Shown here in pieces: positions 3,551 to 58,842 of a stretch of 64,000 nt of DNA. The position numbers and the translations under genes were made by a program. Each line of letters starts with the position of its first letter. Position 1 is the first letter of the stretch. Source of the stretch: an uncultured Candidatus Saccharibacteria bacterium (GTDB lineage: Bacteria; Patescibacteriota; JABMPQ01; JAQVVF01); contig CAZNOH010000003.1 of assembly GCA_964574655.1 (NCBI GenBank), positions 58,149 through 122,148 of the forward strand. The letters are read 5' to 3'. The notes beneath the pieces are model-generated. The model was not told where the DNA came from and searched no databases. It worked only from the letters and a program-made list of their open reading frames with translations.

Positions 3551-4429
3551 TCACAACAATACCAAAATTATTCCCATTATAACTAAAGCAATTCCCATAA
3601 TCAATTTTAATGTCTTGAGTTTTGATTCTTGCCACTCTTTCAACACTGCAATCTTTTTTCCAGCTAAAACCAAAATCCAAATTGTTATTAATGGCAAAAC
3701 AAATAATAAGTTATAAAGCAAAAGGTAAAAAATAATTCGCGCAATTCCTAAATTATCATGCATTATCTGAACAGATCCAACATACAAAGGCAAAGAACAA
3801 GGCATTTCAAATAACGTTACTAAAATTCCCAAAATAATCGTTGACGGAATGCTCGCCTTTTCCACAAATTTAGTCAACATCCATCTTCTTTTTTGCGAAA
3901 CTTCCAAAGAAAAACCCTTTCCATGCCACCAAAAATCTTTAATATTAATCAAGCCTGCAACAACAATAAAAAATGCCAAAACATATTTCAGATACAAAGA
4001 AACATCGCCAAAATAAGGCATTGTCACCAAAACATCGATAAATTTATAAAAAAACACACCAACTAAAAAATATGTTGAAAAGACAGTGATAATATAGATT
4101 CCTCCAATTTTCAAAATCTCTTTAAATTTTTTGCCATTATCCTCTTCTTCAGGATGTACAAAAATAATTAAATAACCTAACAACAAAATAATTAATCCAA
4201 TTGCGCATGGATTGATTCCATCAATCAAACCAGCGACTATTACTATTGACAAGGTTAATTGTTCTGCATTCAAATGCAACATTTGCCCAACATCACAACC
4301 AAAAATAACAATTTTTTGCGCCTTACAAGTTGCTTCTGCAGCCAAAGCAAAATTAGAAAAACTAGCAAATAGCAAGCAAGAAGCAATAACTAACAAAATT
4401 ATAAAATTTGTTTTTCTAAAATATTTCAT
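3551..4429 (-). CDS. CcdA/DsbD-family transmembrane thiol-disulfide electron transporter
   Basis: Multi-TM protein with one Cys in each of two half-repeats in a proline context (GINPCAIG and EMPCSLP), as in CcdA. Adjacent to the DsbA-like gene. Confidence 0.55.
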   Translation of the reverse strand: MKYFRKTNFIILLVIASCLLFASFSNFALAAEATCKAQKIVIFGCDVGQMLHLNAEQLTLSIVIVAGLIDGINPCAIGLIILLLGYLIIFVHPEEEDNGKKFKEILKIGGIYIITVFSTYFLVGVFFYKFIDVLVTMPYFGDVSLYLKYVLAFFIVVAGLINIKDFWWHGKGFSLEVSQKRRWMLTKFVEKASIPSTIILGILVTLFEMPCSLPLYVGSVQIMHDNLGIARIIFYLLLYNLLFVLPLITIWILVLAGKKIAVLKEWQESKLKTLKLIMGIALVIMGIILVLL

Positions 4430-4525
4430 AAACTAAAGATATCATAACAATATTAGATATTCAAGAAGCATATTTTTTACTTTTGCCTTGTAACTTTTTA
4501 CTTTTTCTTTTTTAATTTTGCCTTT

Positions 4526-6166
4526 TTATAAAATTTCTTCTCGCTTCTCTTTGATATACACAATCCAGTCTTCTATTATTTCAATCATTAATTGAAATGG
4601 GGCTTCAATCAAAAAATCCATTACAAAAATAAAAATATTAACTCTGGAAAAAGTATTTGAAATCCATCTGCCAAACCTTAAAATTGGCAAAGTAAATATA
4701 TCAAACAAAAAAGTAATAACATTCTCTTTTTCAGTTTGCAAGATTAATTCTCTAACAGATTGCCTCAATGACACTCCAAAGAAACAGACAATGCTAAATA
4801 ATACGATGAAAATAGCGCCTGAAACATAATTAAAATCTAATCTATGCAATGCCCAAATTATAAAACCAAAAGTCATTGAAAAAACAAGCAAATATAAAAA
4901 GGAAAAAATAAAATTAAAAATAAATTTTCTTTTTCTTAATAAAACTCTTTCCCTAACAAATATTTTTCTTTTTACATCATCATAAACAATTTCTTTTATG
5001 CCAGAAACTATTTTATCAGAATTCTTTTCTCCTGGCACTCGCACCAACAAAGCAACTAAAAATATCAAAAACGGCGGAATCAAAATATTTACTGTAAATG
5101 CCGAATAATTTATCAACGAAAGAAAAATCAATTCATAAGGCACTTCAATAATCAATGCCAACAAAATTTTTGTAAGCAAAATATAAATAACAGCCCGAAC
5201 AGCCTTGCGTCTTAATTTTATCTTAAATTCAGCATATTTTTCTAAACACACAGAACGCAATTTATCTTCCAAAGACAGAATATCAGGTGGCTGAAAAGGA
5301 TCAAATTCAATTGATGGTTCTGGCGGATTCAAAAATAATTCCTTTGCATTTTCCGGACTTTGATCAATAAAGCTTTTTAAAATTACAAATGGCGCAACGT
5401 ATTTTCTGACTAGCTGATATAATCTGTTCGACATTTTATGATTCAACTGTCGATCAATTCCCTCTTTTATTAAATCAATATCATTAGCAATTTTTTCAAT
5501 TGTCAAATATGACGGCTTATCAAACCAATTCGGAAAATGCAATCTAAACAGATGATAAGACAATATATCATCGTCTGACTTAATCAACGCGCGATGTATT
5601 GCTATATAAACTTGAATATCTTTTTCTCCTTCTCTAATTCCTTGCTGTTCCAAAGAAATCTTTTTCGCCAACATGTCATACATGCAATTCACCAAGGCTG
5701 ATTCCACTATTTTTGGTTTTAACAAATTATCAATTTCACAAGCTGCAATTGCCAACAACCACTCAATTTTTTTCGATGATCCAGGAACTTCTCTCTTTGC
5801 CAATTGATTGTTTAAGAAAATATATTTATTCAAGATACCGCCGATTTCATAAACAGTTTCTTCAGTCACGCTCATGTTTTCAAGATGCCTTGATCTGATT
5901 AGCTCTCTAACTAATGAATCTGCAATATTCCAAGCCTTGTTTTTATGGACAAATCTTCTTTTTATAATTCTCAAAATAGCGCTTTTTCTCAACAAATGTT
6001 CCTCCCGATAATCAACAGCTGTCCTAATTTTTTCATAGAAAAAAGACAGTGTTCCAATCACCTCATTGACTTTTATCAACGTTCCTTTTTTTTTCTTAGC
6101 CAAAGATGAAGCTTCTAAAAAAGCATCAAACAAATCATCGGCCCTTTTGGATAACCTTTTTTGCAT
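4526..6166 (-). CDS. Hypothetical protein with soluble N-terminal region and C-terminal polytopic membrane domain
   Basis: Long ORF, uniform AT-rich coding composition. About 300 aa hydrophilic then about 5 predicted TM helices. No recognisable motif. Confidence 0.5.
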   Translation of the reverse strand: MQKRLSKRADDLFDAFLEASSLAKKKKGTLIKVNEVIGTLSFFYEKIRTAVDYREEHLLRKSAILRIIKRRFVHKNKAWNIADSLVRELIRSRHLENMSVTEETVYEIGGILNKYIFLNNQLAKREVPGSSKKIEWLLAIAACEIDNLLKPKIVESALVNCMYDMLAKKISLEQQGIREGEKDIQVYIAIHRALIKSDDDILSYHLFRLHFPNWFDKPSYLTIEKIANDIDLIKEGIDRQLNHKMSNRLYQLVRKYVAPFVILKSFIDQSPENAKELFLNPPEPSIEFDPFQPPDILSLEDKLRSVCLEKYAEFKIKLRRKAVRAVIYILLTKILLALIIEVPYELIFLSLINYSAFTVNILIPPFLIFLVALLVRVPGEKNSDKIVSGIKEIVYDDVKRKIFVRERVLLRKRKFIFNFIFSFLYLLVFSMTFGFIIWALHRLDFNYVSGAIFIVLFSIVCFFGVSLRQSVRELILQTEKENVITFLFDIFTLPILRFGRWISNTFSRVNIFIFVMDFLIEAPFQLMIEIIEDWIVYIKEKREEIL

Positions 6167-7647: not shown

Positions 7648-7653
7648 TAATTA

Positions 7654-10042: not shown

Positions 10043-11560
10043 ATGAAAATAAAAACAACAATTATAATCTTGTTATGTTTTCTTTTTTCTCCTTTATTAA
10101 CATTAGCTTCAGAAGCTTCAGAAAATTTATTATCAGCTAAAGCATATAACTTCACTTGGCCACTTGATAAATGGTCTTTTGATATGGAAGGTCAAAAATT
10201 TGGGACTATCAGAGGTAACGGAATTTACCATCTCGGAGACGACATCGGCATTTCTGCTGGATCACCAGTTTATTCTGTTGCAACTGGAACTGTTAAAAAT
10301 ATTGGCGTTTACACTGATTTTGGCACTGTTATTTTAATTGAGCATACTCTTTCAACTTCAGAAAAAATTGTTTCTTTATATGGACACTTAGGAAGAGATG
10401 TCAAAGTTAAAGAGGGACAATTCGTTAACAAAAATCAAGTAATCGGATATATCGGCACAACCGATGTCAATGGAGGCTGGTCTGAACATCTCCATTTCGG
10501 AATTAGAAAAGGAGCTTTTGTTAATGTTGAAACTAATTGGGTCTACTGGGGATTGGGTTCCAAAAATAAATTAAACGACTGGTATAATCCAACCGAATTT
10601 TTATGGTATAAAATCAACAATCCAGACATTATCACAGGAAAAATAATTACTGCACCAAATTATCCAGGTCGATCGCACATCAGAATTTTTAACGAAAAAG
10701 GTTACGCAATTCCATCTTTTGACTTCTTTGCCTATCCTCCAAAAAATAAAAAAGGATCTCAAATTTCTTTAGGCGATATTAATAATGACAAACAGCAAGA
10801 ATTGATTATCAGCTCAAATAGTTACAAACCTCAAATAAAAATTTTTAGTAAAAATTCTCAAGACTTTATAACAAAATTCAAACCATTCTCAAAAAAATAC
10901 AATGGACAAATAAATCTAATAACAACAGATCTAAATTCAGACGGTCAAGATGAGATCATTGCCACAACTGGTCCAAGCCAATATCCAAAAATAAAAATAT
11001 TCTCTTACAACACAACAACAAATCTCTTTGAAGAAAGTATCAAGATTCCAAGTCCATTCAGCCGAAAAATAAAATGCGGGATTAACTTAACCGTCATTGA
11101 TTTAAATAATGATAACAAAAAAGAAATTCTTGCCACTCCAGCCAACAACAAAAAATCAGTTTTAAAATATTGGAATGGATCAACTTGGAAAAAATTAAAA
11201 TCAAAAATCTTCAAAAAAAATAATGCAAAATTAACAACTGGAGATATCGATGGAGATGGTATTGAAGAAATAATTGCCGGTTCTCAATCTGGCAAAAGAT
11301 CAGAAATAAAAATTATTAATAAAGATGGACATATCAGAAAAAAAACCATTAAACCATTCAAATATAATTACAAAAACGGCATAAATATTACCACAACTGA
11401 CTATAACAATGATGGAATTTTGGATATCGTCGCTTCCGTTGCAAAATCAGGCTTACCAAAAATTAAAGTCATTCAATACAAACAAAGACTTGTTTTAGCT
11501 TCTTTTTTAGCTTATAATGAAAATTTCATGGGTGGAGTAAATATCATCGGAATTAAATAA
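10043..11560 (+). CDS. Secreted M23-family metallopeptidase fused to FG-GAP/VCBS-like repeats
   Basis: Signal peptide. M23 motifs YHLGDDIG and HLHFGIRKG. C-terminal repeats of the form D(L/I)N(N/S)DGxxEIIA(T/G). Confidence 0.75.
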   Translation: MKIKTTIIILLCFLFSPLLTLASEASENLLSAKAYNFTWPLDKWSFDMEGQKFGTIRGNGIYHLGDDIGISAGSPVYSVATGTVKNIGVYTDFGTVILIEHTLSTSEKIVSLYGHLGRDVKVKEGQFVNKNQVIGYIGTTDVNGGWSEHLHFGIRKGAFVNVETNWVYWGLGSKNKLNDWYNPTEFLWYKINNPDIITGKIITAPNYPGRSHIRIFNEKGYAIPSFDFFAYPPKNKKGSQISLGDINNDKQQELIISSNSYKPQIKIFSKNSQDFITKFKPFSKKYNGQINLITTDLNSDGQDEIIATTGPSQYPKIKIFSYNTTTNLFEESIKIPSPFSRKIKCGINLTVIDLNNDNKKEILATPANNKKSVLKYWNGSTWKKLKSKIFKKNNAKLTTGDIDGDGIEEIIAGSQSGKRSEIKIINKDGHIRKKTIKPFKYNYKNGINITTTDYNNDGILDIVASVAKSGLPKIKVIQYKQRLVLASFLAYNENFMGGVNIIGIK

Positions 11561-13319: not shown

Positions 13320-14207
13320 TTATTTTAATGACTTTTTACGCGCAACCAAATAAAAACTAATTATTATTAATAATAACACAAAAAATATAATTATATAAAT
13401 CAGAGAATTATTTTCTTCTTTTATTTTATCGAAATTTACTTTTTCAATTCTTTCATTTCCAGCTTTGTCAATTACTTTCACTTGTATTTCTTGATTCAAT
13501 CTTTGATTTTTCAATACATAAGGGCTTTCTGTTATTACAAAACTGCTATCTCCTTCTTTTACTTCATAATGATCAATTCCAGAATTCTTGTCAGAAGTCG
13601 CAAAACTTAAAAAATATTTTCCATTAAACAATCCATCTTTTTTGCTCATTTCAGGCTTGAAAGATTCAGGCAAAATAGTATCGCTCTTAATATCCGTCTC
13701 AATTCCATTTGAAGTTCTGCTGATTAAAAAATCTAAATTAGAAAAAACAATATTTGCCAGCTCGCCATTCTCGTTATTTTTTGCAATTTGCGAATTATCT
13801 TCAAAAAAAATATTTGCTGTTCCATCTTTAATCGCTTCAAAAGTCAAACTGCCAAGCAAGCCATTTTTTCCTTCATAACCATTAGCAATAATTCCTGCCA
13901 AATTTATTTTAGTATCATTGCTTTGAGGCCTAACAATCCAAAAATTTATTAAAGAATTTCCATCGCTAAAATCTTTATATTTCAATGTTTCAGAAGAAAA
14001 ACCAACATTTAAATCAACAGCATTTATTGCTTCAAATCCTGTATCCAAAAAAACTTTAGCAGAAAAAAAATCTGTAATTCCAATTTCTTTTTTATCCAAT
14101 TCAAAATACAATCTTGCTGCCTTCACGCCATTGCCAAAAAACAAGCATAAAAACATGCTTATTAAAACTAATACGAAAAAAGATTTTTTTTTACTTTTTA
14201 CTTGCAA
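13320..14207 (-). CDS. Membrane-anchored cohesin-like domain protein (signal peptide, C-terminal TM anchor)
   Basis: FSAKVFLDTGFEAINAVDLNVGFS...LLGSLTFEAIKDGTANIFF cohesin-like segment. C-terminal hydrophobic helix followed by RKKSLK. Apparent TTG start overlaps a dispersed repeat motif. Confidence 0.4.
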   Translation of the reverse strand: MQVKSKKKSFFVLVLISMFLCLFFGNGVKAARLYFELDKKEIGITDFFSAKVFLDTGFEAINAVDLNVGFSSETLKYKDFSDGNSLINFWIVRPQSNDTKINLAGIIANGYEGKNGLLGSLTFEAIKDGTANIFFEDNSQIAKNNENGELANIVFSNLDFLISRTSNGIETDIKSDTILPESFKPEMSKKDGLFNGKYFLSFATSDKNSGIDHYEVKEGDSSFVITESPYVLKNQRLNQEIQVKVIDKAGNERIEKVNFDKIKEENNSLIYIIIFFVLLLIIISFYLVARKKSLK

Positions 14208-14241
14208 CTTTTTACTTTTTAATTTTTAATTTTGACTTTTC

Positions 14242-15156
14242 TTAGCCTGTCCAATAATACGCCATTACGCTCAAATCTCTAATGTCAATAATTCCGTCCT
14301 TTTTAAGTCTTTCATCAACATTCTTTTTTGCCAGATCAGTTAAACCGCGCCCCCACCAATAAGCCAAAATAGACATATCAACAATATTAACCTTGCAATC
14401 AGTATTCAAATCAGCTCTTCCCGGACAAGCCCTTTCTTTTTTCTTTTTAGAAACTTCTTTGACTTCAAAGTCCACTTTTGGCGACAAATCAGAAATACTT
14501 CCGCCATTGCCAACGCTTGCCCTTGCCTTGGCTCCATAATCACCATACTCCATTGAAGAAGTATCTAAATTATAAAGCCACAAACCACTATCATCAGCAA
14601 CCGTCAAGCCAGATGTTGGCGTATTCCAAATTGAATCAAAATACACTGAAACATTAACTAACGGCTTGCTCTTTCCAAAAACACTGACAATATCTCCTCT
14701 TGCCACCTCATCTTTATCAACATCAATTGTCGGCGACAAAAAGATACCGCTGATCTGCGTTGTCACGCCAGAAGTCACTGATATTGCAAAAGCTAACGAA
14801 TTTGTCCTTCTGCCGTCTATATCATCGCCATACAAAGTAAACATATAAACTCCAGCTGACAAGCCAGTTAAAGTAATTTCAAAATTAGCATCTGGTCCAG
14901 CTTGAGTGCTTGCCGAAATCGCCCCATCTTTCAAAAGCGTTACAAAGCTTGAAGGCGCTGCCATGCCTTTGAATACTACGCTTGTTTCTGCTGGCGGAGT
15001 AATCGGCAAAATTTCAATGCGAAAATTGGAAGTATCCGAAGCTCTGCATGGAACACGTAACATAGAACATAAAACAAACGACAAAATTGCCATTAGAAAA
15101 AATTTATTCCGCATGTTCCATATTATATGTTTCATGTTATGTATTATATATTTCAC
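14242..15156 (-). CDS. Secreted protein with C-terminal dockerin-like domain
   Basis: Two Ca-binding-loop-like repeats ADLNTDCKVNIVDMSILAYWWG and KKDGIIDIRDLSVMAYYW at the C-terminus. N-terminal beta-rich domain. True start may be an internal Met (MRNKFFLMAILSF). Confidence 0.5.
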   Translation of the reverse strand: MKYIIHNMKHIIWNMRNKFFLMAILSFVLCSMLRVPCRASDTSNFRIEILPITPPAETSVVFKGMAAPSSFVTLLKDGAISASTQAGPDANFEITLTGLSAGVYMFTLYGDDIDGRRTNSLAFAISVTSGVTTQISGIFLSPTIDVDKDEVARGDIVSVFGKSKPLVNVSVYFDSIWNTPTSGLTVADDSGLWLYNLDTSSMEYGDYGAKARASVGNGGSISDLSPKVDFEVKEVSKKKKERACPGRADLNTDCKVNIVDMSILAYWWGRGLTDLAKKNVDERLKKDGIIDIRDLSVMAYYWTG

Positions 15157-21558: not shown

Positions 21559-24051
21559 ATGTTAAAAAAATACAACATTTTAGAACAGGAACAAAAATGG
21601 CAGAATTTTTGGGATCAAAACAATATTTACAAATATGATCCCTTTTCAAAAAAGCCAATTTTCTCAGTTGATACTCCTCCACCATACGCATCTGCCGCCC
21701 ATCTTCATGTTGGCCATGCCATGTCTTATACTCAAGCCGAATTCATCATCCGTTTCAAACGCATGCAAGGCTATAATGTTTTTTATCCAATGGGTTTTGA
21801 TGACAATGGCTTGCCAACTGAAAGATACGTTGAACAAAAATACAAAATTGCTGACAAAACCAAAATTTCCCGCGAAGAATTTATCAAATTATGTTTGCAA
21901 GAAACCAAAGAAGTTGCCAAAACTTATACTTCTCTTTGGAAATCATTAGGCCTTTCAGTTGATTGGTCATTGCTATATTCGACAATTAGTTCAATGTCTC
22001 GCCGTATTTCTCAAAAATCTTTTTTAGATTTATACAAAAAAGACTTGTTAGAACATCGCCAAGAACCAACAATCTGGTGTCCTTCCTGCCAAACAGCATT
22101 GGCCCAAGCTGATCTTGAAGATTCAGAAGAAAAATCCACACTAAATTATATAACGTTCAAACTTAAACACAGAAACACAGAAACACAGAAACATTCTGAC
22201 GCTCCGACGCTCCAAAGCTCCGAAGCTCTCATTGTTGCCACTTCCAGACCAGAATTACTACCAGCTTGTGTCGCCTTATATATCAATCCAGACGACAAAC
22301 GCTACCAAAGATTAATAAATCAAACTGCCATTGTTCCATTATTTAATTATGAAATCGAAATCAAATCTGACCCTTCTGTTGATCCAAAATTTGGCACTGG
22401 CTTAATGATGGTTTGTACTTGGGGCGATTCTGAAGATGTTGCCAAATGGAAAAAAGATCAACTTTCAACCAGACTGATCTTTGATAAATCAGGACACTTA
22501 AATGAAAAAGCAAAACCTTATCAAGGCTTAGCTATTAAAATCGCTCGTATTAAAATTTTAGAAGATTTAAAAAATAAAAATTTATTAATTAAGCAAGAAG
22601 ACATTACTCATGTTTTAAACATCCACGAACGCTGCAAAACTCCAGTTGAATTTTATTTAACAAAACAATGGTTTATTAAAATTCTTGATAATATAGAAGA
22701 TTTCAAAAAACAAGGAGACAAAATAAACTGGTATCCGGTATCAATGAAAAAGAAATATGATACTTGGCTAGATGGATTAAAATGGGATTGGAATATTTCA
22801 AGAGAAAGATATTATGGCGTTCCGTTTCCAGTTTGGTATTGTAGCAAATGTCATGAAACAATTTTGCCAGATGAAAAAGATCTGCCAGTTGATCCAATCG
22901 AAAATGAACCAAAAAATCCTTGCCCAAAATGCCAATCAAATAAATTTATTCCAGAAAAAGATGTCATGGATACTTGGATGACATCATCTTTAACACCTCA
23001 AATCAATTCGCATTGGCAAGAACAAGATGAAAACAAAAAACTTTATCCAATGTCTTTGCGTATTCAAGCTTTTGAAATTATCAGAACTTGGCTTTTTTAT
23101 ACAGTTGTAAAATCTTGGTATCATAAAAAATCTTTACCATGGCAGGATGTCATGATTTCAGGACACGGACTAGACGAACAAGGACGCAAGATTTCCAAAT
23201 CATTAGGAAATTATGAACCAGTTAATAACATCATAAAGCGTTATGGTTCTGATGCACTTAGATATTGGTCTGCAGGATCAAATCTTGGCAATAATTTAAG
23301 ATATAAGGAAGAAGAAGTTAAAGACGGCAAAAAATTAATTACCAAACTTTTCAACGCCAGCAAATTCGGCTTGATGTTCTTAAATAAGAATTCAGAATTG
23401 AGAATTGAGAATAGAGAATTTTCACCTATCGACATTTGGATTTTATCAAAACTACAAGATACAATTAAAAAAGTTACGCAATATTTCAATGATTACGAAT
23501 ACTCGAAAGCAAAGAAGGAAGTCTACAATTTCTTTTGGAAAAATTTTGCTGATAACTATATTGAGCTTGCCAAATCAAGACTCTATAATGATGAAAATAA
23601 GGAAGCTAAACAATCAGCTCAAGCAACACTTTATATTTGCTTAATAAATATTTTAAAAATGTTTGCACCAATCCTTCCACATATTACTGAAGAAATCTGG
23701 CAAGCGATAAAACAATTAAACAATGAAACAAAAAAACAATTTAACAATTTAACAATTGAACAATCAATCCACATCAGTTCTTGGCCAAAACAAGAAAACA
23801 AATTTATCAACAAAAAAATGGAATTACTTGGTGATTCTATTGTAGAAATTTTAAGTTTAGTTCGAAAAACAAAATCAAATGCCAATCTGGCAATGAATAA
23901 AGATATTAAAGAAATAATTATTGACTCTAAAGAAAAAGATTTAGAAAAATTCTTTCCAGATCTAGCCTCAGCCACTCATGCAGAGCAAATTTCTTTCGGA
24001 ACTGGTGATCAAAATATTGATGATAATCTGAAAATAAAAATTATTTTATAA
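21559..24051 (+). CDS. valS: Valyl-tRNA synthetase (class I aaRS)
   Basis: PPPYASAAHLHVGHA (HIGH-type), RFKRMQGYNV, VDPKFGTG, WCPSCQTAL, DWNISRERYYGVPFPVWYC, KISKSLGN (KMSKS). Best match to the ValRS pattern but IleRS/LeuRS not fully excluded. Carries two in-frame tandem-repeat insertions. Confidence 0.7.
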   Translation: MLKKYNILEQEQKWQNFWDQNNIYKYDPFSKKPIFSVDTPPPYASAAHLHVGHAMSYTQAEFIIRFKRMQGYNVFYPMGFDDNGLPTERYVEQKYKIADKTKISREEFIKLCLQETKEVAKTYTSLWKSLGLSVDWSLLYSTISSMSRRISQKSFLDLYKKDLLEHRQEPTIWCPSCQTALAQADLEDSEEKSTLNYITFKLKHRNTETQKHSDAPTLQSSEALIVATSRPELLPACVALYINPDDKRYQRLINQTAIVPLFNYEIEIKSDPSVDPKFGTGLMMVCTWGDSEDVAKWKKDQLSTRLIFDKSGHLNEKAKPYQGLAIKIARIKILEDLKNKNLLIKQEDITHVLNIHERCKTPVEFYLTKQWFIKILDNIEDFKKQGDKINWYPVSMKKKYDTWLDGLKWDWNISRERYYGVPFPVWYCSKCHETILPDEKDLPVDPIENEPKNPCPKCQSNKFIPEKDVMDTWMTSSLTPQINSHWQEQDENKKLYPMSLRIQAFEIIRTWLFYTVVKSWYHKKSLPWQDVMISGHGLDEQGRKISKSLGNYEPVNNIIKRYGSDALRYWSAGSNLGNNLRYKEEEVKDGKKLITKLFNASKFGLMFLNKNSELRIENREFSPIDIWILSKLQDTIKKVTQYFNDYEYSKAKKEVYNFFWKNFADNYIELAKSRLYNDENKEAKQSAQATLYICLINILKMFAPILPHITEEIWQAIKQLNNETKKQFNNLTIEQSIHISSWPKQENKFINKKMELLGDSIVEILSLVRKTKSNANLAMNKDIKEIIIDSKEKDLEKFFPDLASATHAEQISFGTGDQNIDDNLKIKIIL

Positions 24052-27177: not shown

Positions 27178-28455
27178 TTATTTCTTTATCTTTTTTATTA
27201 TTCTTTCTACTGCCAACGCATCCGCTCCCATCCTCAAATCAACCTTATATTTCTCACTCATCTTCCAAACATCGGCAAAAGATTTTTTCATTGTCTTTTC
27301 TAGCTTTTTATTTACATCAACAAGACTCCAATATTTTCCATCCATATTTTGTAACCATTCAAAATAAGAAACGGTCACGCCTCCAGCATTTGCCAAAATA
27401 TCAGGAATTACCACTTTTTTCTTTTTAAACAAAATTCTGTCAGCATCAGGAGTTGTTGGACCATTTGCCATTTCCAAAATAATATTAGCTTTTATTCTAT
27501 TGGCGTTATCTTTCGTAATTTGATTTTCAATAGCTGCTGGCACTAGAACATCAACATCTAATTCTAACAATTCCGCATTTGTAATCTTCTGTGTATCAAC
27601 TAGACCACTAACACTACCTGTCTTCTCTTTTTGTTTCATTACCTTCTCAAGATCAATACCATCTTTTTTATACACTCCACTTCTTGAATCAGAAACCGCG
27701 ACAACAACGAACCTTTTGTCTTTAGAAATAATTTCCGCAATATTATATCCTACATTTCCAACACCTTGCACTGCAACAGTTATTTTTTCATTTGCTTTAA
27801 TCTTTTTCAACGCCTCGTTTAATGTAAAATATCCGCCTAAAGCAGTTGCTTCCGTTCTCCCCAAAGATCCGCCCTTAGATATTGGCTTTCCAGTAAAAGT
27901 TGGTAGCCACTCATTATCAGCGATTTTTGAATTTTTACTTGTAGCTTTTACCTTTTTACTTTTAACTTTTAACTTTTTAAATTCATCGCTCATCCATGCC
28001 ATTATTTCCGGAGTTGTATTTACATCAGGTGCTGGAATATCCTTATTTGGTCCGATACAATCAAAAATTGCCTTAACATAACCTCTTGATAAATTTTCCA
28101 ATTCTTTTTTTGATAATTTTTTTGGATCAACAATTACTCCGCCTTTTCCACCGCCCAAAGGAATGTTTGCAACTGCGCATTTCATTGCCATCCAAAAAGA
28201 CAAAGCTTTTACTTCAAAATCAGAAACTTCCTGATGAAATCTAATACCGCCTTTATACGGGCCTCTTGCAGAATTATATTGCATTCTAAATCCTTGAAAC
28301 ATCCTAATCTTTCCATCATCCATTTTCACTGGGAAATTAACATAAACTGCTCTTTCTGGTTTTGATAAAATTTCCAAATAGGTTTTATCCAACTTCATCA
28401 AATCAGCTACTCTCCCAAGCTGAACTAATGCATTCTCAAAAACATTTTCAGACAT
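27178..28455 (-). CDS. gdhA: NAD(P)-specific glutamate dehydrogenase
   Basis: KGGIRFH, GGGKGG, GVGNVG Rossmann motif. Contains an in-frame insertion (KKLKVKSKKVKATSKNSKIADNE) encoded by a copy of the dispersed TTTTTACTTTT-type motif. Confidence 0.9.
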   Translation of the reverse strand: MSENVFENALVQLGRVADLMKLDKTYLEILSKPERAVYVNFPVKMDDGKIRMFQGFRMQYNSARGPYKGGIRFHQEVSDFEVKALSFWMAMKCAVANIPLGGGKGGVIVDPKKLSKKELENLSRGYVKAIFDCIGPNKDIPAPDVNTTPEIMAWMSDEFKKLKVKSKKVKATSKNSKIADNEWLPTFTGKPISKGGSLGRTEATALGGYFTLNEALKKIKANEKITVAVQGVGNVGYNIAEIISKDKRFVVVAVSDSRSGVYKKDGIDLEKVMKQKEKTGSVSGLVDTQKITNAELLELDVDVLVPAAIENQITKDNANRIKANIILEMANGPTTPDADRILFKKKKVVIPDILANAGGVTVSYFEWLQNMDGKYWSLVDVNKKLEKTMKKSFADVWKMSEKYKVDLRMGADALAVERIIKKIKK

Positions 28456-28528
28456 ATTGCTTTAGTTAATTAGTTAATTAGTTAATTAGTTTATTAGTAA
28501 TTAGGTAACAATGGAACAATTTAACAAT

Positions 28529-28723
28529 TTATTTCTTGTTGATCTCATCAATTATAGCCTGGATCTTTTTTTCATCAAGTCCATGTGCTAAAGAACCCTG
28601 TTCGATTGTTTCTCCATGAGCCATCAAACAACCAACGCAATGCATTCCATGCTTAACTAAAATATCAACCGTTTCTGGTTTTTCTTCAACTGCCTTGCTG
28701 ATTAAAGTATCTTTTGTAATCAT
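28529..28723 (-). CDS. DUF1858-type small redox-disulfide protein (hybrid-cluster-protein-associated domain)
   Basis: 64 aa with MHCVGC motif in the DUF1858 context (KHGMHCVGCLMAHGETIEQG). Confidence 0.55.
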   Translation of the reverse strand: MITKDTLISKAVEEKPETVDILVKHGMHCVGCLMAHGETIEQGSLAHGLDEKKIQAIIDEINKK

Positions 28724-30469: not shown

Positions 30470-32857
30470 TTATACTGATTCACAAAGTGCATTTAAACCT
30501 CTTACTAAATCAACATAGCGTGCATATTCTTTAATTGCCCTATACTGGCTCTCTCCATCCAATCCTGCTTCTTTCAAAACCATTGCTGCCTGCCCACTGC
30601 CCAAATAATGCCCCTTTTTAAAAGGATGCAAGGTAACCAATCTACCCGATATTGACATTATCCATCTATCCATTGTTGGCTTTGTAAACCCAGTAACACC
30701 CATTGCAAAAGAAGCAACTCTTTCTGGAAAAATCTGTTCCTGAACTTCCAAATCAAGCCTGGCAAAAAGTTCTGCTGAAGCAACATAATAAACATTCGGA
30801 TCAATACCATCTGCCAAAAGCCTTGGCAAAGTGTCAACCACAAAAGCATATGTCACTCCGCTTTCCTGCAAAATGATATTAACATCTGGCTTATTATTTG
30901 TTGCCTTCCGCAATAAATAAACGCCATTAATTGACTCTTCAAATCCTGACAATCCAAGTGCTTTTCGATCCAGCACTTTCTTTGGCGGACGAGTTACAAA
31001 GATTGCAATAATTGCCGGCCAAAGCGATAAAGCTTTTGCCAGCAATGGCCAAATTTCCTGAGGCTCCCAAGGAGTCAAGGTGATCATCGTATCACCAGGG
31101 AAATTCTCTTGCAACAATTGCAAGGCCTGAACATCAGCATGAGTTGGACCATCTTCTCCGGTTTCCAATCCAGCATGTCCACAAACCAAAATAAAAGGAT
31201 TATATGACTGACCTGTTACTACCTTTTTCGCCTGCTGACCAATTGCATGCAACCTTGCTGCAATATGTCCAAGCGGTGCCATAAAAGCAGCATATGACCC
31301 GCCAACACCAATATGATGGCCATTGGCTGACAGTCCTGCTAGAATTGCAGACATTGCATCTTCACAAATCCCACCTGTCGAAAGCTTCCTTGAATCAGGA
31401 TTCCTTTCAGCATGGAAAAATCCATCAGGAAATCCATTTCCAATATTTCCAACACTGACTGAATCCAAGAGATCAGCAGCTGCACAAAGAATTGCTCCAT
31501 AACTTCCTCTATTCAGGAAGTTCAAAGCATCCCCTAAAACACCTCGCAAAGTTACATCATTGCCCGGCGTCAAAATCAAAGATTCTGGAGTATCGCCTTC
31601 TAACAAATCAATTGCTCCGTAGACATTACCAATTTCTGGAGCAAAAATTTTCTTTTCTCTACCATCTTCATTCAAACACGTCTGCGCAATTACCAAATCA
31701 TTCGACAATCTTTTTATTATTTCATAATTACTAATTTCCATCGCCGAACGAATACTTAACAATGCTTGTGCATAACACACTTCAATCCTTTCCTGATCAC
31801 TACCACTTTGGCACAAATTTTCACCAAAGCAGTTTGGCAAAGAAATAACACCTAATTCACGAAGCTCTTCTGTCGCTTCATAAAATCCCGAAGTGCAAAG
31901 CTTGTGGCCTGCACCATGAGATTTTTTGCCAGTAATTCCATATTTGTAACCTTTTTCAGTTCGATAGACAATCATTGTCGGTTGACCATTCTCCCTGTCT
32001 CCCAAAATAGCAAAAGCAGCATTAACTTGTGTAAAGCTCATGCCATCAGGTACATAGATTACGTTCCAATCATGAAGCTGTCCTAACTCCATTGGAGTCC
32101 ATTGGACATAATCGCCAAATTGATCATCTTCTGCACAAACTCGATCCGAATCAATTGATGACTGATTCCAATCAACATGCAAAACAATATTGCTAAGACC
32201 CATTGCTGACGCAGCTGCCATAGCTTCAGAAACACGACCAGGAGTAAGTCCTCCCTCGCCTTCCAAAATATGGACTTTTGGTGCTTTTTCTTTTCCATAG
32301 TAATCGATTCTACCCAAAGCCAAACCAACAGCTGTAGCCAATCCCACTCCCGAAGCACCAGTCGCAATCCTTACAAACGGTGTTGCTGGCGTTGAATGTC
32401 CATCAAGCGCTCTTGCCCTGTATTGCTTAAACAATGGCAAATCAGTTTCAGGATTTCGCCTGAATCCCAACAAATCTTCTAATCGCAATCTGTCCTTCAT
32501 ATCCTCTGGCAATAAATGACTTGCCCCAATTCGAACAACCTCATCCATCAAAGCTAAGGCTGTATAGAGTCCCAAAGCCTTATGACCTGCAGCTTCTACC
32601 CAAACATCAGCATCTTCTCGATTTGGATTTGAAATATCAAAATACAAACCATGATACAACAGATAATTACGAATTACGCCAGAAGAAATTGATCCTCCAG
32701 GATGACCCGAAGTTGGCACAAAGTTGTACAAAATTGCACACAAGCTTCTATACAACTTGAACAGAAATTCCAGATCAGAAAAAGTTGAAGGACCTAAGAG
32801 CTGTCCGTTTTTCACTAGCTTTCCAACATCATGATAACTGCTTCTTCGCTGACTCAT
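30470..32857 (-). CDS. tkt: Transketolase-family thiamine-diphosphate enzyme (long form)
   Basis: GHPGGSISSG, AAGHKALGLYTALAL, EGEGGLTPGRVSEA, GEDGPTHADVQALQ. Strong GGAGGG RBS and higher GC than neighbours. Confidence 0.65.
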   Translation of the reverse strand: MSQRRSSYHDVGKLVKNGQLLGPSTFSDLEFLFKLYRSLCAILYNFVPTSGHPGGSISSGVIRNYLLYHGLYFDISNPNREDADVWVEAAGHKALGLYTALALMDEVVRIGASHLLPEDMKDRLRLEDLLGFRRNPETDLPLFKQYRARALDGHSTPATPFVRIATGASGVGLATAVGLALGRIDYYGKEKAPKVHILEGEGGLTPGRVSEAMAAASAMGLSNIVLHVDWNQSSIDSDRVCAEDDQFGDYVQWTPMELGQLHDWNVIYVPDGMSFTQVNAAFAILGDRENGQPTMIVYRTEKGYKYGITGKKSHGAGHKLCTSGFYEATEELRELGVISLPNCFGENLCQSGSDQERIEVCYAQALLSIRSAMEISNYEIIKRLSNDLVIAQTCLNEDGREKKIFAPEIGNVYGAIDLLEGDTPESLILTPGNDVTLRGVLGDALNFLNRGSYGAILCAAADLLDSVSVGNIGNGFPDGFFHAERNPDSRKLSTGGICEDAMSAILAGLSANGHHIGVGGSYAAFMAPLGHIAARLHAIGQQAKKVVTGQSYNPFILVCGHAGLETGEDGPTHADVQALQLLQENFPGDTMITLTPWEPQEIWPLLAKALSLWPAIIAIFVTRPPKKVLDRKALGLSGFEESINGVYLLRKATNNKPDVNIILQESGVTYAFVVDTLPRLLADGIDPNVYYVASAELFARLDLEVQEQIFPERVASFAMGVTGFTKPTMDRWIMSISGRLVTLHPFKKGHYLGSGQAAMVLKEAGLDGESQYRAIKEYARYVDLVRGLNALCESV

Positions 32858-32899: not shown

Positions 32900-34201
32900 C
32901 TAGTACAACCGACCGCCACTTGCAACATAATCAGAAAAACCATTTACATCAAAAGCAGCTCTTCTTATTCTTTCCACTGCCAACTTCAACTCGTCCATGC
33001 TAGTTGCAAAAGAAATCCGCAAGAAATGCGAGTCTTCAACGCCAATGCTTCCAAATGATTTTCGATCCATTGTTGCTACTCCATAACAATACAGCAAGAA
33101 CATTTGTAACAAAGTTGAAGGACTGGTTTTGCACCTCTCAACTTCCGGCAATCCATTATAGATCTTGATGATACCAAGATGATGACAAAGACTTTCCACA
33201 GCCGGAAAAACATAAAACGCTCCACCAGGATTTTGACAAGCAATTCCAGAAATTCGATTCAAAGCAGGAACAATAAAATCTCTCCGCCTTTGGAATTCCG
33301 CAACCATTCTTGCCAATTCAAGTTTGCTTCTTCTATCTTCCAAAGCAACTTGCGCTCCCATTTGCGTAAAAGCTGGCACGCAAGAAAAGAAATTAATATT
33401 GAACATCTTAAACATTCGCGCCTCTTCAACTGTTGGAAATATTGCCCATCCAACTCTGCCTCCAGTCCAAGCATATGACTTGGAAACTCCTGAAACAATA
33501 ATTGTCAATTTTTCCATTCCAGGAACCGAAGCGATTGAAAAATGATGCCTACCATCAAACAGAATATCTTCATAAACTTCATCAGAATAAACTCTGATAT
33601 CATTTCGCCCTAGACCCAATATAGCTTCCGCTATGTGTGTCAATTGTTCCTGAGTCGCTACTCCGCCAGTCGGATTGGAAGGAAAATTCAGAATAACCAA
33701 CTTTGTTTTTGCATTCATCTGCAAAGACAATTGCTGACCAGAAAAAGTAAATTCATCCCTCGGATTCAAATACAATGCTCGAGGAATTGCTCCGACAAAT
33801 CTTATAAAAGATTCATAAATCGGAAATCCAGGACTTGGATAGACAACTTCTTCACCAGAATTGCAATAAACCATCTCACAAAAACCAATCGGCGGTTTTG
33901 CACCAGGAAAAACAACCACTTGATCAGGACTGATTTTTAAACCGCGCCTTAAACCCATTGTTCTTGCAATTGCTTGACGCAAAGACAAAATCCCTTGCGG
34001 ATCACAATAATGAGTCATTCCCTTATCAATCGCATCCTTCACTGCATTTCGAATATACTCAGGAACTTCGAAATCCGGCTCGCCCAAATTGCATCTGATA
34101 ACTCTCATTCCTAATTTTGTTTCTGCTTCTGCAATATATGGTCCAACTTTGAAAGCATTCTCAGTACCCAAGTCATAACATCTTTGTGCAAACAGTTTCA
34201 T
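32900..34201 (-). CDS. Class I/II pyridoxal-phosphate aminotransferase (aspartate/aromatic type)
   Basis: SKSYAWTGGRVGW PLP-lysine motif, NPTGG. Start trimmed to ATG 34199-34201 preceded by AAAGGGAGGGG. Confidence 0.8.
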   Translation of the reverse strand: MKLFAQRCYDLGTENAFKVGPYIAEAETKLGMRVIRCNLGEPDFEVPEYIRNAVKDAIDKGMTHYCDPQGILSLRQAIARTMGLRRGLKISPDQVVVFPGAKPPIGFCEMVYCNSGEEVVYPSPGFPIYESFIRFVGAIPRALYLNPRDEFTFSGQQLSLQMNAKTKLVILNFPSNPTGGVATQEQLTHIAEAILGLGRNDIRVYSDEVYEDILFDGRHHFSIASVPGMEKLTIIVSGVSKSYAWTGGRVGWAIFPTVEEARMFKMFNINFFSCVPAFTQMGAQVALEDRRSKLELARMVAEFQRRRDFIVPALNRISGIACQNPGGAFYVFPAVESLCHHLGIIKIYNGLPEVERCKTSPSTLLQMFLLYCYGVATMDRKSFGSIGVEDSHFLRISFATSMDELKLAVERIRRAAFDVNGFSDYVASGGRLY

Positions 34202-34395
34202 CTCTCCCCTCCCTTTTTGTCTCGGGTTTTTTAAACCCTTGGCTGCTTCGTCTCTTTTAGATACCACAAATTTTAAAAGAACCTGCCTAATCATACATCA
34301 TTAGATTCTAATATATTACACCATCATAAGTCAATTAATCTGTGGATTATTCTCAAAAATCTTGCTATCATAAATTTAGTTTTAATAATGTAGCA

Positions 34396-35701: not shown

Positions 35702-36075
35702 TGAACATTGTTTCTCAACAACAAGCATTGAATATCACCAAACCTTCGGGAATAAAAGTTTTGTATTATCTTTTTAACGAATACGAACTTCATTATAACG
35801 AACAGCCTGCAAATACAAAACAAGATTGGCATCATCACGAAAAAATTTCCGAAACTATTTACATTATTGATAACGAATTAACTTTGAAATGGAAAGAAAA
35901 TGATAAAATAAAATCAATAATTGTTAGGCAAGGAGATTTAATTGAAACACAAAAGAATCCACATTGTTTTAGCAACAACACAAATAGAATCACAAAATTC
36001 ATTGTTTTTAAACAAGTTTTTTCTGGACAAAATAAAAAAGAAATATTAAAAAACGATAAAATATTGGATGAATAA
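35701..36075 (+). CDS. Small cupin-fold protein
   Basis: WHHHEKISETIYII and PHCF motifs that fit a two-motif cupin. Confidence 0.4.
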   Translation: MNIVSQQQALNITKPSGIKVLYYLFNEYELHYNEQPANTKQDWHHHEKISETIYIIDNELTLKWKENDKIKSIIVRQGDLIETQKNPHCFSNNTNRITKFIVFKQVFSGQNKKEILKNDKILDE

Positions 36076-36135
36076 AAATTTTTATTTTTTACTTGCAACT
36101 TTTTACTTTTTAATTTTGACTTTTAATTTTTTCAA

Positions 36136-36621
36136 ATGAAAATAACCATTTGCGGCAGTATTGCATTTTATGATCAAATGCAAGAAATAAAAAATAAATT
36201 AGAAAAAATTGGGCATGAAGTAAAAATTCCGCCAAATCAAATTTTAAATAACCAAAAAAAATTTATTCCGGTTTCAAAGTATTATCAACTTAGAAAAACT
36301 AAAAATGAAAATTGGATTTGGAAAGAATTAGGAATCTGTATGAAAAATCATTATCAGAAAATTAAAAATTCTGATGCTGTTCTAATTTTAAATTATGATA
36401 AAAATAAAATAAAAAATTATATTGGCGGAAATACTTTAATAGAAATTGCCACAGCTTTTAATCTAAATAAAAAAATCTTTTTTATTTATCCAATACCAAA
36501 ATTATCTTATACCGAAGAAATCAAAGCCATGCAGCCAATTATTATAAATAACAACTTATCAAAAATATTAGACTATTCAATTAATTCTACAAAACAAAAA
36601 ATGCAATTGTTTAAAAATTAA
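36136..36621 (+). CDS. Hypothetical protein (possibly nucleoside 2-deoxyribosyltransferase-like Rossmann fold)
   Basis: MKITICGSIAFYDQM N-terminus typical of that fold. Weak. Confidence 0.3.
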   Translation: MKITICGSIAFYDQMQEIKNKLEKIGHEVKIPPNQILNNQKKFIPVSKYYQLRKTKNENWIWKELGICMKNHYQKIKNSDAVLILNYDKNKIKNYIGGNTLIEIATAFNLNKKIFFIYPIPKLSYTEEIKAMQPIIINNNLSKILDYSINSTKQKMQLFKN

Positions 36622-36708
36622 TTATTAAGAATTTAATAGAGTTAAAAGCGCCCTTAGAAGCTTTTAACGGGTAGCAACCCTTTAAAATTAGAAATTAGAA
36701 ATTATTTT

Positions 36709-42090: not shown

Positions 42091-42116
42091 CAGAGTTTTA
42101 CTCTGTTTTTTATTCT
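42091..42116. terminator. Rho-independent terminator (cagagttttactctg + TTTTTT)
   Basis: Seen directly after the stop. Confidence 0.65.
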
Positions 42117-42225
42117 TTACAAATCAAAAAAATCTTGTTATATTATCACATTAAGATTTCAGTAATTTTTTTTAATTTTTACTTGGAACTTTTTACTTTT
42201 TAATTTTTACTTTTACCTTTTAATA

Positions 42226-42938: not shown

Positions 42939-43010
42939 TTACCTGCCTGTCAATAGGCAGTTTCTCTATTCACAATTCTCTATTCACAATTCTCATGTTA
43001 AAATATATTA

Positions 43011-46080: not shown

Positions 46081-46112
46081 TATTTTTACTTTTTAATTTT
46101 TACTTTTTTAAC

Positions 46113-49378: not shown

Positions 49379-49428
49379 ACAAAAAAATCGCCAGACAGCG
49401 ATACTTTTTACTTTTGCCTTTTTACTTT

Positions 49429-50835
<1,407 letters not shown>

Positions 50836-54895: not shown

Positions 54896-55036
54896 AACAA
54901 AAATAGTTTAGGCTTCAAAAAACTTAGCTTTATTTTACCTTATTTTTAACAATTTAACAATTGGGCAATTCAACAATTCAAGATATTAAAAAAGAGCATA
55001 AATTGCTCTTACTTTTTACTTTATAACTTTAAAACC

Positions 55037-56125
55037 TTATAAACTTTCGTACACGCTCAACGTCTCTCTCGCACATTTTTCCCACGAAAAGTTACTAGCT
55101 TGTTTTAATCCATCAGCCTTCATCATTATTTGCTTCTCGCCATTATTTAAAACATCAATAATATTTTTTATCCATAATTCTTTATTTTCCGGATCCAACA
55201 AGATTCCGGCATTACTAACAACTTCCGGCAACGATGAAGAATTTGAAGAAATAACTGGCACACCGCATTTCATTGCTTCCAAAATCGGCAAACCAAAACC
55301 TTCATAAATTGATGGAAACGCAAACAATTTAGCGCCATTATATAAATATGGCAGATCCAAATCATCAACGTAATTCGTAAAAATCACTTTATCTTTAATC
55401 CCTAAATTTTCAATTTCACGAAACAAATTTTCATATCTCCAACCTTTTTTTCCAGCAACAACAAGTTTCAAATCACCAATACCCGAATTTCCAAATTTCC
55501 GAATATCTTTTACCACATCAGCGAAAACTTTAACGAAAAATTCCAAATTCTTTCTCGGCTCCAAAGTTCCAACATTCAAAATATAATCTCCGCTAATTTT
55601 ATATCTTTTCTTCACTTGTTCAATTTTATTTAAGTCAGTTATCACTTTAAATTCATCGCCAGCTGCTTCATAAATTACTTTTATTTTATTAGAATCTAAT
55701 CCCAATTTTTCAACCAAATCTTTTTTTGCACTTTCTGAAATCGTAATATAATAATCAGCAAATTTATACGACCAAGGCATTAATTTTGTAAAATAAAATC
55801 TTGAAGCTCTGGAAAAATTTTCCGGATAAATTAATGGAATAATGTCATGAATTGTCACAACCTTTTTAAATTTTCCAAATCTTGGCACCGAAAAACAAGT
55901 TTTATGAATAATATCAGCCTTAACTTTTTTTGCTTTTTTAACAAAACCAACTTGATCCCACCAAATTCTTTCATAAGTTCTCAAGTCTTTTTCTTTTCCT
56001 GAATCAATTAAAAAATATTCATTTTGAGTATCAATTTTTTTCAAATTTTCAACCAAATTTTTAACGTAAAAACCAAAACCGCTCTTCTTCCCTAACATTG
56101 TTTGTGTATCAATTACGATCTTCAT
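55037..56125 (-). CDS. GT4-family glycosyltransferase (GT-B, group 1)
   Basis: EGFGLPILEAMKCGVPVISSNSSSLPEV. Confidence 0.8.
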   Translation of the reverse strand: MKIVIDTQTMLGKKSGFGFYVKNLVENLKKIDTQNEYFLIDSGKEKDLRTYERIWWDQVGFVKKAKKVKADIIHKTCFSVPRFGKFKKVVTIHDIIPLIYPENFSRASRFYFTKLMPWSYKFADYYITISESAKKDLVEKLGLDSNKIKVIYEAAGDEFKVITDLNKIEQVKKRYKISGDYILNVGTLEPRKNLEFFVKVFADVVKDIRKFGNSGIGDLKLVVAGKKGWRYENLFREIENLGIKDKVIFTNYVDDLDLPYLYNGAKLFAFPSIYEGFGLPILEAMKCGVPVISSNSSSLPEVVSNAGILLDPENKELWIKNIIDVLNNGEKQIMMKADGLKQASNFSWEKCARETLSVYESL

Positions 56126-58292: not shown

Positions 58293-58338
58293 AACATTTT
58301 AAAAACATAAAAATAAAATTTTTTATATTTTTAGTTTT

Positions 58339-58842
58339 TTAGATTTTTAAGTCTCTTGGCTTTACAATTATTTTTCTATTTGGATCTTCTCCAATACTTT
58401 CTGTACAAACTCTTTCGTCATTGGCAAGAAACATATGAACTACCCTTCTTTCATACGCTGTCATTGGTCTTAAAACAATTTGCTTGTTCATCATCACCAC
58501 TCTCTCAGAAACATCAAATGCTAATTTTCTTAAATACTCTTCTTTTTCCTGCCTATAATTATTTACATCAATATAAAATGGAATTTCAGAAACATTTTTT
58601 CTTTTTAAAAATACTTTTGCCAAATACTGAATTGCAAATAAATTGCAACCCCTTTGACCAATTAAATAATTTGCGTCATCTGCTTCAATATTAAAACAAA
58701 CAATTTCCTTTCCTTCTTTTTCATCAATCTTAGTATTAATTTTTGCAGAAATTCCCATTTTAATTACTAAATCGTCAACTACTCCTTTTACCTCCTCAAT
58801 ACTTGTTGCATTGATCTCGTTCATAAATTTGACAGTTAACAA
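58339..58842 (-). CDS. jag: Jag/KhpB-like RNA-binding protein (KH + R3H)
   Basis: C-terminal R3H motif YERRVVHMFLANDERVCTESIGEDPNRKIIVKP. Position next to yidC. Confidence 0.7.
   Translation of the reverse strand: MLTVKFMNEINATSIEEVKGVVDDLVIKMGISAKINTKIDEKEGKEIVCFNIEADDANYLIGQRGCNLFAIQYLAKVFLKRKNVSEIPFYIDVNNYRQEKEEYLRKLAFDVSERVVMMNKQIVLRPMTAYERRVVHMFLANDERVCTESIGEDPNRKIIVKPRDLKI

Follow-up and report, generated by a model that had tools for sequence, protein, structure and literature searches.

Degenerate T-rich heptameric tandem arrays at gene boundaries in a Candidatus Saccharibacteria genome

What are the seven closely similar segments of about 45 bp that lie scattered, all in one orientation, along a 64,000-nt stretch of an uncultured Candidatus Saccharibacteria genome (assembly GCA_964574655.1, contig CAZNOH010000003.1, positions 58,149 to 122,148; hereafter the window)? 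A first-pass annotation of the same stretch treated them as a dispersed 45-bp motif and considered a REP-like role in DNA structure, a part in termination, or a promoter element. The sites form a real family of related heptameric tandem arrays, degenerate in sequence, that lie flush with coding edges. The earlier description was thus right to see a dispersed same-strand family, but it did not recognize the unit, since each "motif" is a tandem array of degenerate 7-nt units, and it missed the wider class of 7-8-nt arrays in this genome, of which this family is only one. With moderate confidence we favor the interpretation that the seven sites are heptameric simple-sequence arrays born of slippage and retained as spacers or leaders free of structure. 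The arrays are not mobile elements, they are not promoters, and they have no secondary structure.

The family is real by every comparison made within the window. Read directly, the motif is present at all seven sites, always on the plus strand. A 28-mer core with up to 3 mismatches allowed has 6 matches in the window, all on the plus strand (two of them overlapping inside the array at 14188), and 0 matches in 100 dinucleotide-preserving shuffles. An nhmmer profile built from the seven sites recovers precisely those seven, all on the plus strand, with E-values of 3e-11 to 7e-9 (0.008 for the short copy at 46082), and it has no match on the minus strand of the window at E<=10. The positions and the common orientation first reported for the motif are thereby confirmed. 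A looser pattern, at least 3 T-rich heptamers in a run, has 8 matches in the window, the longest 49 nt; Markov shuffles of order 3 and order 5, which keep the T-runs, average 0.16-0.18 matches, none of them above 21 nt. The possibility that an AT-rich background yields such a family by itself, raised in the first-pass annotation as a reason to discard it, is not borne out by these shuffles, in which the family stands far above chance. The bias of orientation, 7 of 7 on the plus strand, is real but weak (two-sided binomial p = 0.016). One array (42169-42222) is identical in L158, a second assembly of this strain made independently from a different sequencing run, for which the comparison material is 3-4 kb Logan contigs; the arrays are therefore not an assembly artefact.

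Each site is an array of 4-8 degenerate heptamers with the unit TTTT[T/G]A[C/A]. Tandem Repeats Finder reports a period of 7 or 21 at all seven, with a 21-nt super-period in several, and unit matches within arrays are 66-89%, degenerate and not perfect. In register from 36086, for example, the sequence reads TTTTTAC TTGCAAC TTTTTAC TTTTTAA TTTTGAC TTTTAAT. Five of the seven copies have a lineage-specific order of units in common, TTTTTAC-TTGNAAC-TTTTTAC-TTTTTAA-TTTTKAC-TTTTACC, and a TTGNAAC-type unit stands at the same relative position in five of seven, as opposed to 2 of 129 comparable arrays listed from other genomes. The shared position of this unit means that the window copies are related beyond a common unit vocabulary. 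When the copies are aligned together with 40 nt of flank, the likeness between them stops at the array edges, and the alignment contains no terminal inverted repeats, target-site duplications or shared flanks. Folding of all copies, in either sense, gives minimum free energies between 0 and -0.6 kcal/mol and z-scores close to 0 relative to shuffles. Rfam at gathering thresholds over the window returns one tRNA only and nothing at the arrays; this tRNA-Glu (anticodon TTC; 9867-9941, minus strand) is the sole RNA gene detected in the window. A literature search on the unit sequences themselves gave no match. The copies, numbered from left to right, are listed with their adjoining features in Table 1.

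Table 1. Coordinates of the seven T-rich heptamer arrays and of features that adjoin or overlap them in the window.
Feature	Position	Strand	Units or setting
Array copy 1	4474..4528	+	TTTTTAC TTTTGCC TTGTAAC TTTTTAC TTTTTCT TTTTTAA TTTTGCC TTTTTAT
Array copy 2	14188..14240	+	7-8 units
Coding part of copy 2	14184..14207	-	TTG CAA GTA AAA AGT AAA AAA AAA = (M)QVKSKKK, eight codons
Array copy 3	27932..27982	+	inside gdh, minus-strand gene 27178..28455
Array copy 4	36085..36132	+	occupies the 60-nt spacer from the cupin gene stop (36075) to ATG 36136
Promoter-like site TTTACA-17-TATATT (with TG)	42116..42144	+	upstream of copy 5; kept in relatives without the array
Array copy 5	42168..42222	+	5' untranslated region (UTR) of the DUF3006 gene (ATG 42226)
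Array copy 6	46081..46112	+	shortest, about 4 units; occupies the 32-nt spacer from the ruvB stop (46080) to ATG 46113
Hairpin ATCGCCAGACAGCGAT	49387..49402		A7 on the left, copy 7 on the right; terminator-like in both directions; kept in relatives
Array copy 7	49404..49450	+	between convergent genes

Six of the seven copies are intergenic or straddle a gene end; one, copy 3, lies within a gene. Each of the six intergenic copies has the 3' end of its T-rich strand at most 4 nt from a coding edge or overlapping it, and the opposite (5') end is 1-78 nt from its neighbor. Copies 4, 5 and 6 end 3-4 nt before the ATG of plus-strand genes that have no Shine-Dalgarno motif, which bears out the earlier observation that the motif abuts these three start codons. 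Copy 5 is assigned to a 5' UTR because the promoter-like site lies upstream of it. The right end of copy 1 overlaps the stop codon (4526-4528) of the minus-strand gene 4526..6166, and on its left 44 nt separate it from the ATG (4429) of the minus-strand gene 3551..4429. In its right part (49429-49450), copy 7 specifies the lysine-rich C-terminus (KGKSQN*) of the minus-strand O-antigen-ligase gene together with its stop codon, and the remainder is the A-rich 3' UTR of that gene, running into the hairpin. The gene that follows copy 4 (36136-36621, 161 residues) has no Pfam match and no Shine-Dalgarno motif and is absent at this place in the relative L121 (GCA_028699085.1); the large genes 30470..32857 and 32900..34294 are likewise absent from this otherwise syntenic region of L121. 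A minus-strand open reading frame (ORF) of 79 residues with a TTG start in copy 4 (35859..36098), which overlaps the cupin gene on the opposite strand, was judged spurious.

The copies enter coding sequence solely where their minus-strand reading is a lysine-rich peptide, whether the n-region of a signal peptide, a C-terminal tail or a surface loop. Copy 2 occupies the 33 nt that separate the TTG start (14205-14207) of the minus-strand gene 13320..14207 from the stop of the minus-strand gene 14242..15156, and extends past that start into the first codons, which specify the positively charged start of a signal-peptide-like N-terminus. The frame of gene 13320..14207 and its TTG/GTG start are kept in two relatives at ~70% identity, one of them without an internal ATG. 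The TTG start at 14207 is therefore real, and with it the overlap between motif and start codon that had been described there. Copy 3, also correctly placed inside gdh from the outset, corresponds to residues ~158-175 and on the minus strand encodes the loop KKLKVKS KKVKATS KN, with a period of 21 nt (7 residues). This loop sits between the two Glu/Leu/Phe/Val dehydrogenase domains (Pfam) of GDH, where it is variable and shorter in distant homologues; it is lysine-rich in more distant relatives too, and the copy is in frame and non-palindromic.

Gene boundaries in this Patescibacteria lineage carry many 7-8-nt arrays, and the T-rich family is just one of their sequence classes. Tandem arrays number 97 in the window, compared with ~30-36 in Markov shuffles, and the excess is concentrated at periods 7, 8 and their multiples (20 vs ~4 at period 7, 18 vs ~4.5 at period 8, and 6 vs 0.1-0.4 at period 21). 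Of the 65 stronger arrays, 27 lie in intergenic DNA, which makes up 10% of the window; most of these 27 stand just before a start or just after a stop codon. Per 100 kb, the window and its close relatives have 20-50 arrays of the period-7/8 type, whereas other low-GC loci recovered by RuvB, with similar or higher G+C, have 3-4, so that the clade carries 5-15x more of them than those loci. Such arrays also reach into proteins: the array at 50178-50208 (ATTCGGA x4.4) is in frame and makes up a 10-residue insertion in the O-antigen ligase (Wzy_C) relative to two relatives.

Homologues of GDH and VanW place the window in a Patescibacteria metagenome-assembled genome. Comparison with related genomes (L121, a JGI contig, the L125/L162 lineage and L160; three lineages at the compared sites, including the window) shows that the arrays arise and evolve where they stand, as units are gained, lost or replaced. 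At the ruvB site of copy 6, T-rich heptamers are present in all three lineages with differing units, and L125/L162 has one additional unit and one additional T. The array at the Wzy_C stop (copy 7) is likewise T-rich in all three, after the conserved hairpin and with different units. Copy 2 is nearly unchanged in the relatives save for swaps of unit type. By contrast with these persistent sites, copy 5 has no counterpart at the orthologous position of either relative lineage, where the promoter and ATG context are kept; it is a recent lineage-specific insertion or expansion and is not required for the DUF3006 gene. Upstream of gdh, an array of TTAGTTAA is present six times here and once in L121, and has therefore expanded in place. 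The VanW leader has a T-rich array in a relative and an array of a different family in the window. Changes of length in unit steps between related genomes are seen at few comparable sites (ruvB and TTAGTTAA). Further T-rich arrays are found in the relatives themselves: one in L121 (18372-18406) on the G-rich strand, directly before a start codon, and an independent one in L160 (946-973) on the C-rich strand.

The same units are found far outside this lineage. An exact scan of one genome per species for the 21-mer TTTTTACTTTTTAATTTTKAC finds at least 120 loci; shares by taxon are rough, and all cross-phylum counts given here and below are among the matches listed. By title ~3/4 of the loci are Bacteroidota, the T-rich 21-mer being common in genomes of Chitinophagaceae and Sphingobacteriales, and it is also present in a few Ignavibacteriota, in cyanobacteria and in three genomes of the Candidate Phyla Radiation (CPR); 2.9 million viral contigs yield 1 match. 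At these loci the 21-mer lies in longer heptamer arrays dominated by TTTTTAC, TTTTTAA and TTTTGAC. These arrays have a polarity: among 100 cases, the T-rich strand has a coding edge no more than 10 nt from its 3' end in 70, but from its 5' end in only 7. The edge belongs to an antisense gene, as its stop, in 66 cases and to a sense gene, as its start, in 34. Of 120 loci, 46 have an inverted A-rich arm on the 5' side of the T-rich arm and only 2 have one on the 3' side. These pairs of arms fold into long hairpins of -13 to -39 kcal/mol, and an A-arm followed by a T-arm is the order one would predict for intrinsic terminators that act in both directions and have extended A- and U-tracts. A hairpin search limited to loops of at most 9 nt, which cannot reach the long-loop hairpins of the arm-based test, gives no enrichment (10 vs 11). 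At L008, L035, L045, L057 and L088, for example, the 21-mer and its reverse complement flank a G+C-rich center, forming hairpins directly after stops. Five of the loci (L015, L020, L045, L048 and L078) come from metagenome-assembled genomes titled Streptomyces griseus, Citrobacter freundii or Caulobacter sp., yet have a G+C of 37-46%, which suggests that these contigs are mis-binned or mislabelled.

Heptameric simple sequence repeats (SSRs) are over-represented in bacterial intergenic regions, with polymerase slippage proposed as the cause, and examples include the GGGAATC arrays of Xanthomonas and the GGGGA(T/C)T arrays of Nostoc (PMC4692102, citing Mrazek et al. 2007). The features of such arrays are found here: 7-nt units arranged head-to-tail, over-representation, a mainly intergenic distribution and change of length in unit steps. 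Like the published examples (PMC4692102), the arrays have a period of 7, degenerate units numbering from a few to tens, and many mostly intergenic loci; the same genes flank them in relatives as length and sequence vary; and some occur as inverted pairs able to form hairpins. Unlike those examples, the arrays of the T-rich family are T-rich and G-poor, with no quadruplex potential, are short (4-8 units) and reside in a Patescibacteria host. What is new here is the CPR lineage and the T-rich unit family; the kind of repeat is already known.

Slippage would explain the origin of the arrays, whose sequences carry the footprint expected of it, and the T-rich unit may descend from duplicated terminator U-tracts. 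Once formed, the arrays might persist as tolerated, perhaps mildly useful, spacers or leaders that are structure-free, G-poor and AU-rich. Directly upstream of four start codons they could offer a landing zone for Shine-Dalgarno-independent initiation, and at one site, copy 7, the array may act as the A-tract side of a bidirectional terminator. A Shine-Dalgarno-like motif precedes only 8 of the 62 genes of the window. Those motifs that are present are strong (GGAGG, for example, before 30470..32857, 40159, 48323 and 63064), and because they are few but strong the genome seems to use two modes of initiation.

Several observations weigh against the interpretation of the sites as slippage-born spacers or leaders. 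Independent slippage alone does not account for the TTGNAAC position shared by five of seven copies, nor for the polarity of the arrays, the period of 7 itself or the predominance of these three units in the arrays of other phyla. On the side of function, an array lies within -50..-1 of none of the 8 genes with a Shine-Dalgarno motif and of 18 of the 54 genes without one, an exclusion that is not significant at these numbers. The structure predicted around starts is the same for genes with and without arrays, and leaders in the window are on average slightly A-rich, which makes the three U-rich array leaders outliers. The DUF3006 gene lacks its array in relatives. Support for function is therefore thin, and no copy is known to be required.

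Tandem heptanucleotide arrays at many intergenic sites are also a feature of cyanobacteria, whose short tandemly repeated repetitive (STRR) families consist of specific G/C-containing heptamers. The dispersal of tandem heptanucleotides over many intergenic sites is common to both, but none of the STRR heptamers occurs here, where the units are TTTTTAC, TTTTTAA and TTTTGAC and the host is a member of the Patescibacteria; the heptanucleotides of Calothrix are mentioned in PMC4692102. Closer in position are the TAACTGA direct repeats found just upstream of starts without a ribosome-binding site in Beggiatoaceae, cyanobacteria and some Bacteroidetes (MacGregor 2015, PMC4679880). These too are mostly intergenic heptamers, most of them a few nt before such starts, with occasional reverse-oriented sets just past stops or within ORFs, strain indels in 7-nt steps and other heptamer arrays in the same spacers. 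Their unit sequence differs from ours, and they are near-perfect and mostly of one orientation relative to the downstream gene (PMC4679880), whereas in the window one strand serves genes of both orientations. A position before a start without Shine-Dalgarno motif fits copies 4, 5, 6 and 2, but not copies 1 and 7.

Pyrimidine-rich heptamers in a leader, between promoter and start as at copy 5, are known from the (ATCTTTC)n tracts of hmw1A/hmw2A in Haemophilus influenzae (PMC12721329). The hmw tracts, however, are perfect, 11-63 units long and hypervariable in populations, and form an RNase III hairpin with a G-rich arm (PMC12721329), while our arrays have few units, all degenerate, and no structure, and copy 5 does not differ between the two assemblies of the strain (a single comparison). 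The long, perfect, polymorphic tract of a phase-variable contingency SSR is not seen at these sites, given unit matches of 66-89% and one same-strain comparison.

The rival that fares best holds that the heptads are protein-binding sites, with the units under selection, either for an OB-fold single-strand binder with a footprint of about 7 nt (a cold-shock protein or S1) on the U- or A-rich transcript, or for a nucleoid or regulatory protein on T-tract DNA. The period of 7 is strict and the vocabulary narrow (TTTTTAC, TTTTTAA, TTTTGAC), and that vocabulary recurs in Bacteroidota, Ignavibacteriota, cyanobacteria and CPR. Copy 2 has been kept over ~30% protein divergence, arrays persist at the ruvB and Wzy_C sites, and unit order is shared within the genome. 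CspB of B. subtilis has been reported to bind T-rich heptamers, one protein per heptamer (PMC4679880), and TTTTGAT heptads at ctxAB of Vibrio cholerae recruit regulators (10.1101/2021.05.14.444153). The ctxAB heptads resemble the present arrays in being tandem, T-rich and upstream of a gene, with a unit near TTTTGAC, but they are a DNA site for transcription regulators at a single promoter (10.1101/2021.05.14.444153). A binder of transcripts would also have to cope with the same DNA read in both senses, U-rich before three genes and A-rich at three others; moreover, one copy is dispensable in relatives, and unit types are freely swapped between orthologous arrays. We consider selected binding sites unlikely, although a protein whose footprint spans 7 nt, for example one with a cold-shock domain, would be the most interesting of the rivals. 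In its boldest form, to which we give only a slim chance, this idea would make T-rich heptads a cross-phylum cis-element, read by a conserved single-strand binder with a 7-nt footprint and coupling termination of one gene to Shine-Dalgarno-independent initiation of the next, with the CPR copies as its hairpin-less version.

Arrays might instead be the extended U-tract and A-tract arms of intrinsic, often bidirectional, terminators. The cross-phylum loci speak for this, through the prevalence of the 5' A-arm and the stability of the resulting hairpins, as does the 3' end of the arrays, flush with the next coding edge. Within CPR, the 21-mer at locus L080 comes after a hairpin; copy 7 of the window stands directly after a conserved hairpin with A7 on its far side, and a different heptamer pair of the window forms a hairpin of -32.7 kcal/mol right after a stop. 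At copy 7, then, the connection with termination suggested in the first-pass annotation stands. It fails at the other six, which have no upstream hairpin and so do not conform to the definition of a terminator as a G+C-rich hairpin followed by a U-tract. No inverted partner of the arrays exists anywhere in the window, three copies sit in the very short gaps that separate genes of the same strand and reach up to the next ATG, and one lies in a 5' UTR downstream of a promoter. As an account of the whole family, terminator arms thus seem to us rather improbable.

The shared orientation of the seven copies raises the further possibility of a replication-oriented signal, or of a product of strand-specific mutation, that confines T-rich arrays to the C-rich (lagging) strand. 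GC skew is -0.13 to -0.33 over positions 1-64000 whatever the strand of the genes, so that the plus strand, which bears all seven copies, is C-rich throughout with no switch of skew; the L160 array is on a C-rich strand as well. The L121 array before a start codon, on the other hand, is on the G-rich strand. In other phyla the orientation at 113 loci relative to local GC skew is 65 vs 48 (p = 0.13), not significant, and loci with clearer skew give 35 vs 21 (p = 0.08), a weak trend in the same direction that is not significant either. Less T-rich arrays of the window obey the flush-edge rule on the opposite strand (at 3472 and 59951, for example), and the count is confounded by gene orientation. 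We regard a replication-linked origin as very unlikely.

Short intergenic sequences at many sites of one genome inevitably recall REP, BIME, REPIN and MITE elements, whose defining features are a palindromic hairpin or terminal inverted repeats, and spread by means of a transposase. A dispersed mobile element of REP or MITE type, or one like the Rickettsia palindromic elements (RPE), able to insert in frame as well, is close to what the first-pass annotation leaned toward, and it would suit the dispersal of copies with a shared unit order, the in-frame copy in gdh and the one lineage-specific insertion. But the window copies have no palindrome, no hairpin, no terminal inverted repeats, no target-site duplication and no shared flanks. 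With folding energies near 0 kcal/mol in both senses they lack the REP-like DNA structure that had been proposed, and the absence of fold, inverted termini and common flanks sets them apart from REP and MITE elements. The number of units varies, single units undergo expansion in place, the lysine-rich character of the GDH loop extends to more distant relatives, and viral contigs are almost devoid of the 21-mer. We find mobility scarcely credible. A parallel for the in-frame arrays is provided by Borg tandem repeats (PMC9879509), which are described as pervasive, fast-evolving, arising in place, and both intergenic and in frame, where they encode low-complexity or disordered peptide (compare the gdh loop and the Wzy_C insertion), but also as perfect repeats with longer, varied units on archaeal extrachromosomal elements.

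Least credible of all, and almost certainly wrong, is the proposal that the arrays are promoter elements, with TTGACT, the box first pointed out, as the -35 hexamer, or the array as an AT-rich UP element: TTGAC is found in only three copies (2, 4 and 7), the scan gives a single array match, TTGACT-16-GAAAAT at 36116-36143, whose -10 lies inside coding sequence, so that no array has the sigma-70 arrangement of -35 and -10 hexamers spaced by 16-18 nt ahead of its gene, and promoter-like sites in the region are near shuffle expectation (71 vs 54 +/- 7); at copy 5 a better promoter lies upstream of the array and is kept in relatives without it, copies 4 and 6 leave no space for a promoter before the ATG, and although copy 1 in its minus-strand reading is upstream of gene 3551..4429, no promoter-like site is listed beside copies 1 or 2 on the minus strand.

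If the sites are indeed slippage-born arrays kept as spacers or leaders, their significance is mostly descriptive, adding a CPR lineage and a T-rich unit family to the bacteria with heptameric repeats at gene boundaries. There are nonetheless practical consequences. Gene callers can misplace starts and stops at such arrays, as illustrated by a TTG start that is real (14207) and by lysine-rich termini that are array-derived. The arrays also visibly supply conserved proteins with new lysine-rich stretches of peptide, as in the GDH loop and the Wzy insert, and the cross-phylum polarity, together with the order of A-arm and T-arm, offers a testable handle on why bacteria favor period-7 repeats.

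Other 7-8-nt arrays of unrelated sequence lie directly before starts or after stops in the window, at 3472-3505, 3514-3548, 6236-6272, 7589-7651, 8613-8656, 28462-28531, 36685-36704, 42962-42994, 55018-55047, 58319-58349 and 59951-60007. One family among them, of the ACTTTATA type, recurs at the stops of three minus-strand genes (3514, 6236 and 55018). Near-perfect 7-8-nt arrays are found within ORFs at 50178-50208, 49563-49665, 12073-12103, 12585-12624, 22165-22228, 23383-23420 and 23710-23764. Finally, the heptamer pair with the stable fold noted above consists of inverted arrays (CAATAAC... and ...TTGGTTA) at 11558-11668, right after the stop of gene 10043..11560, and with a z of -6.5 it is a terminator-like stem built of tandem heptamers.

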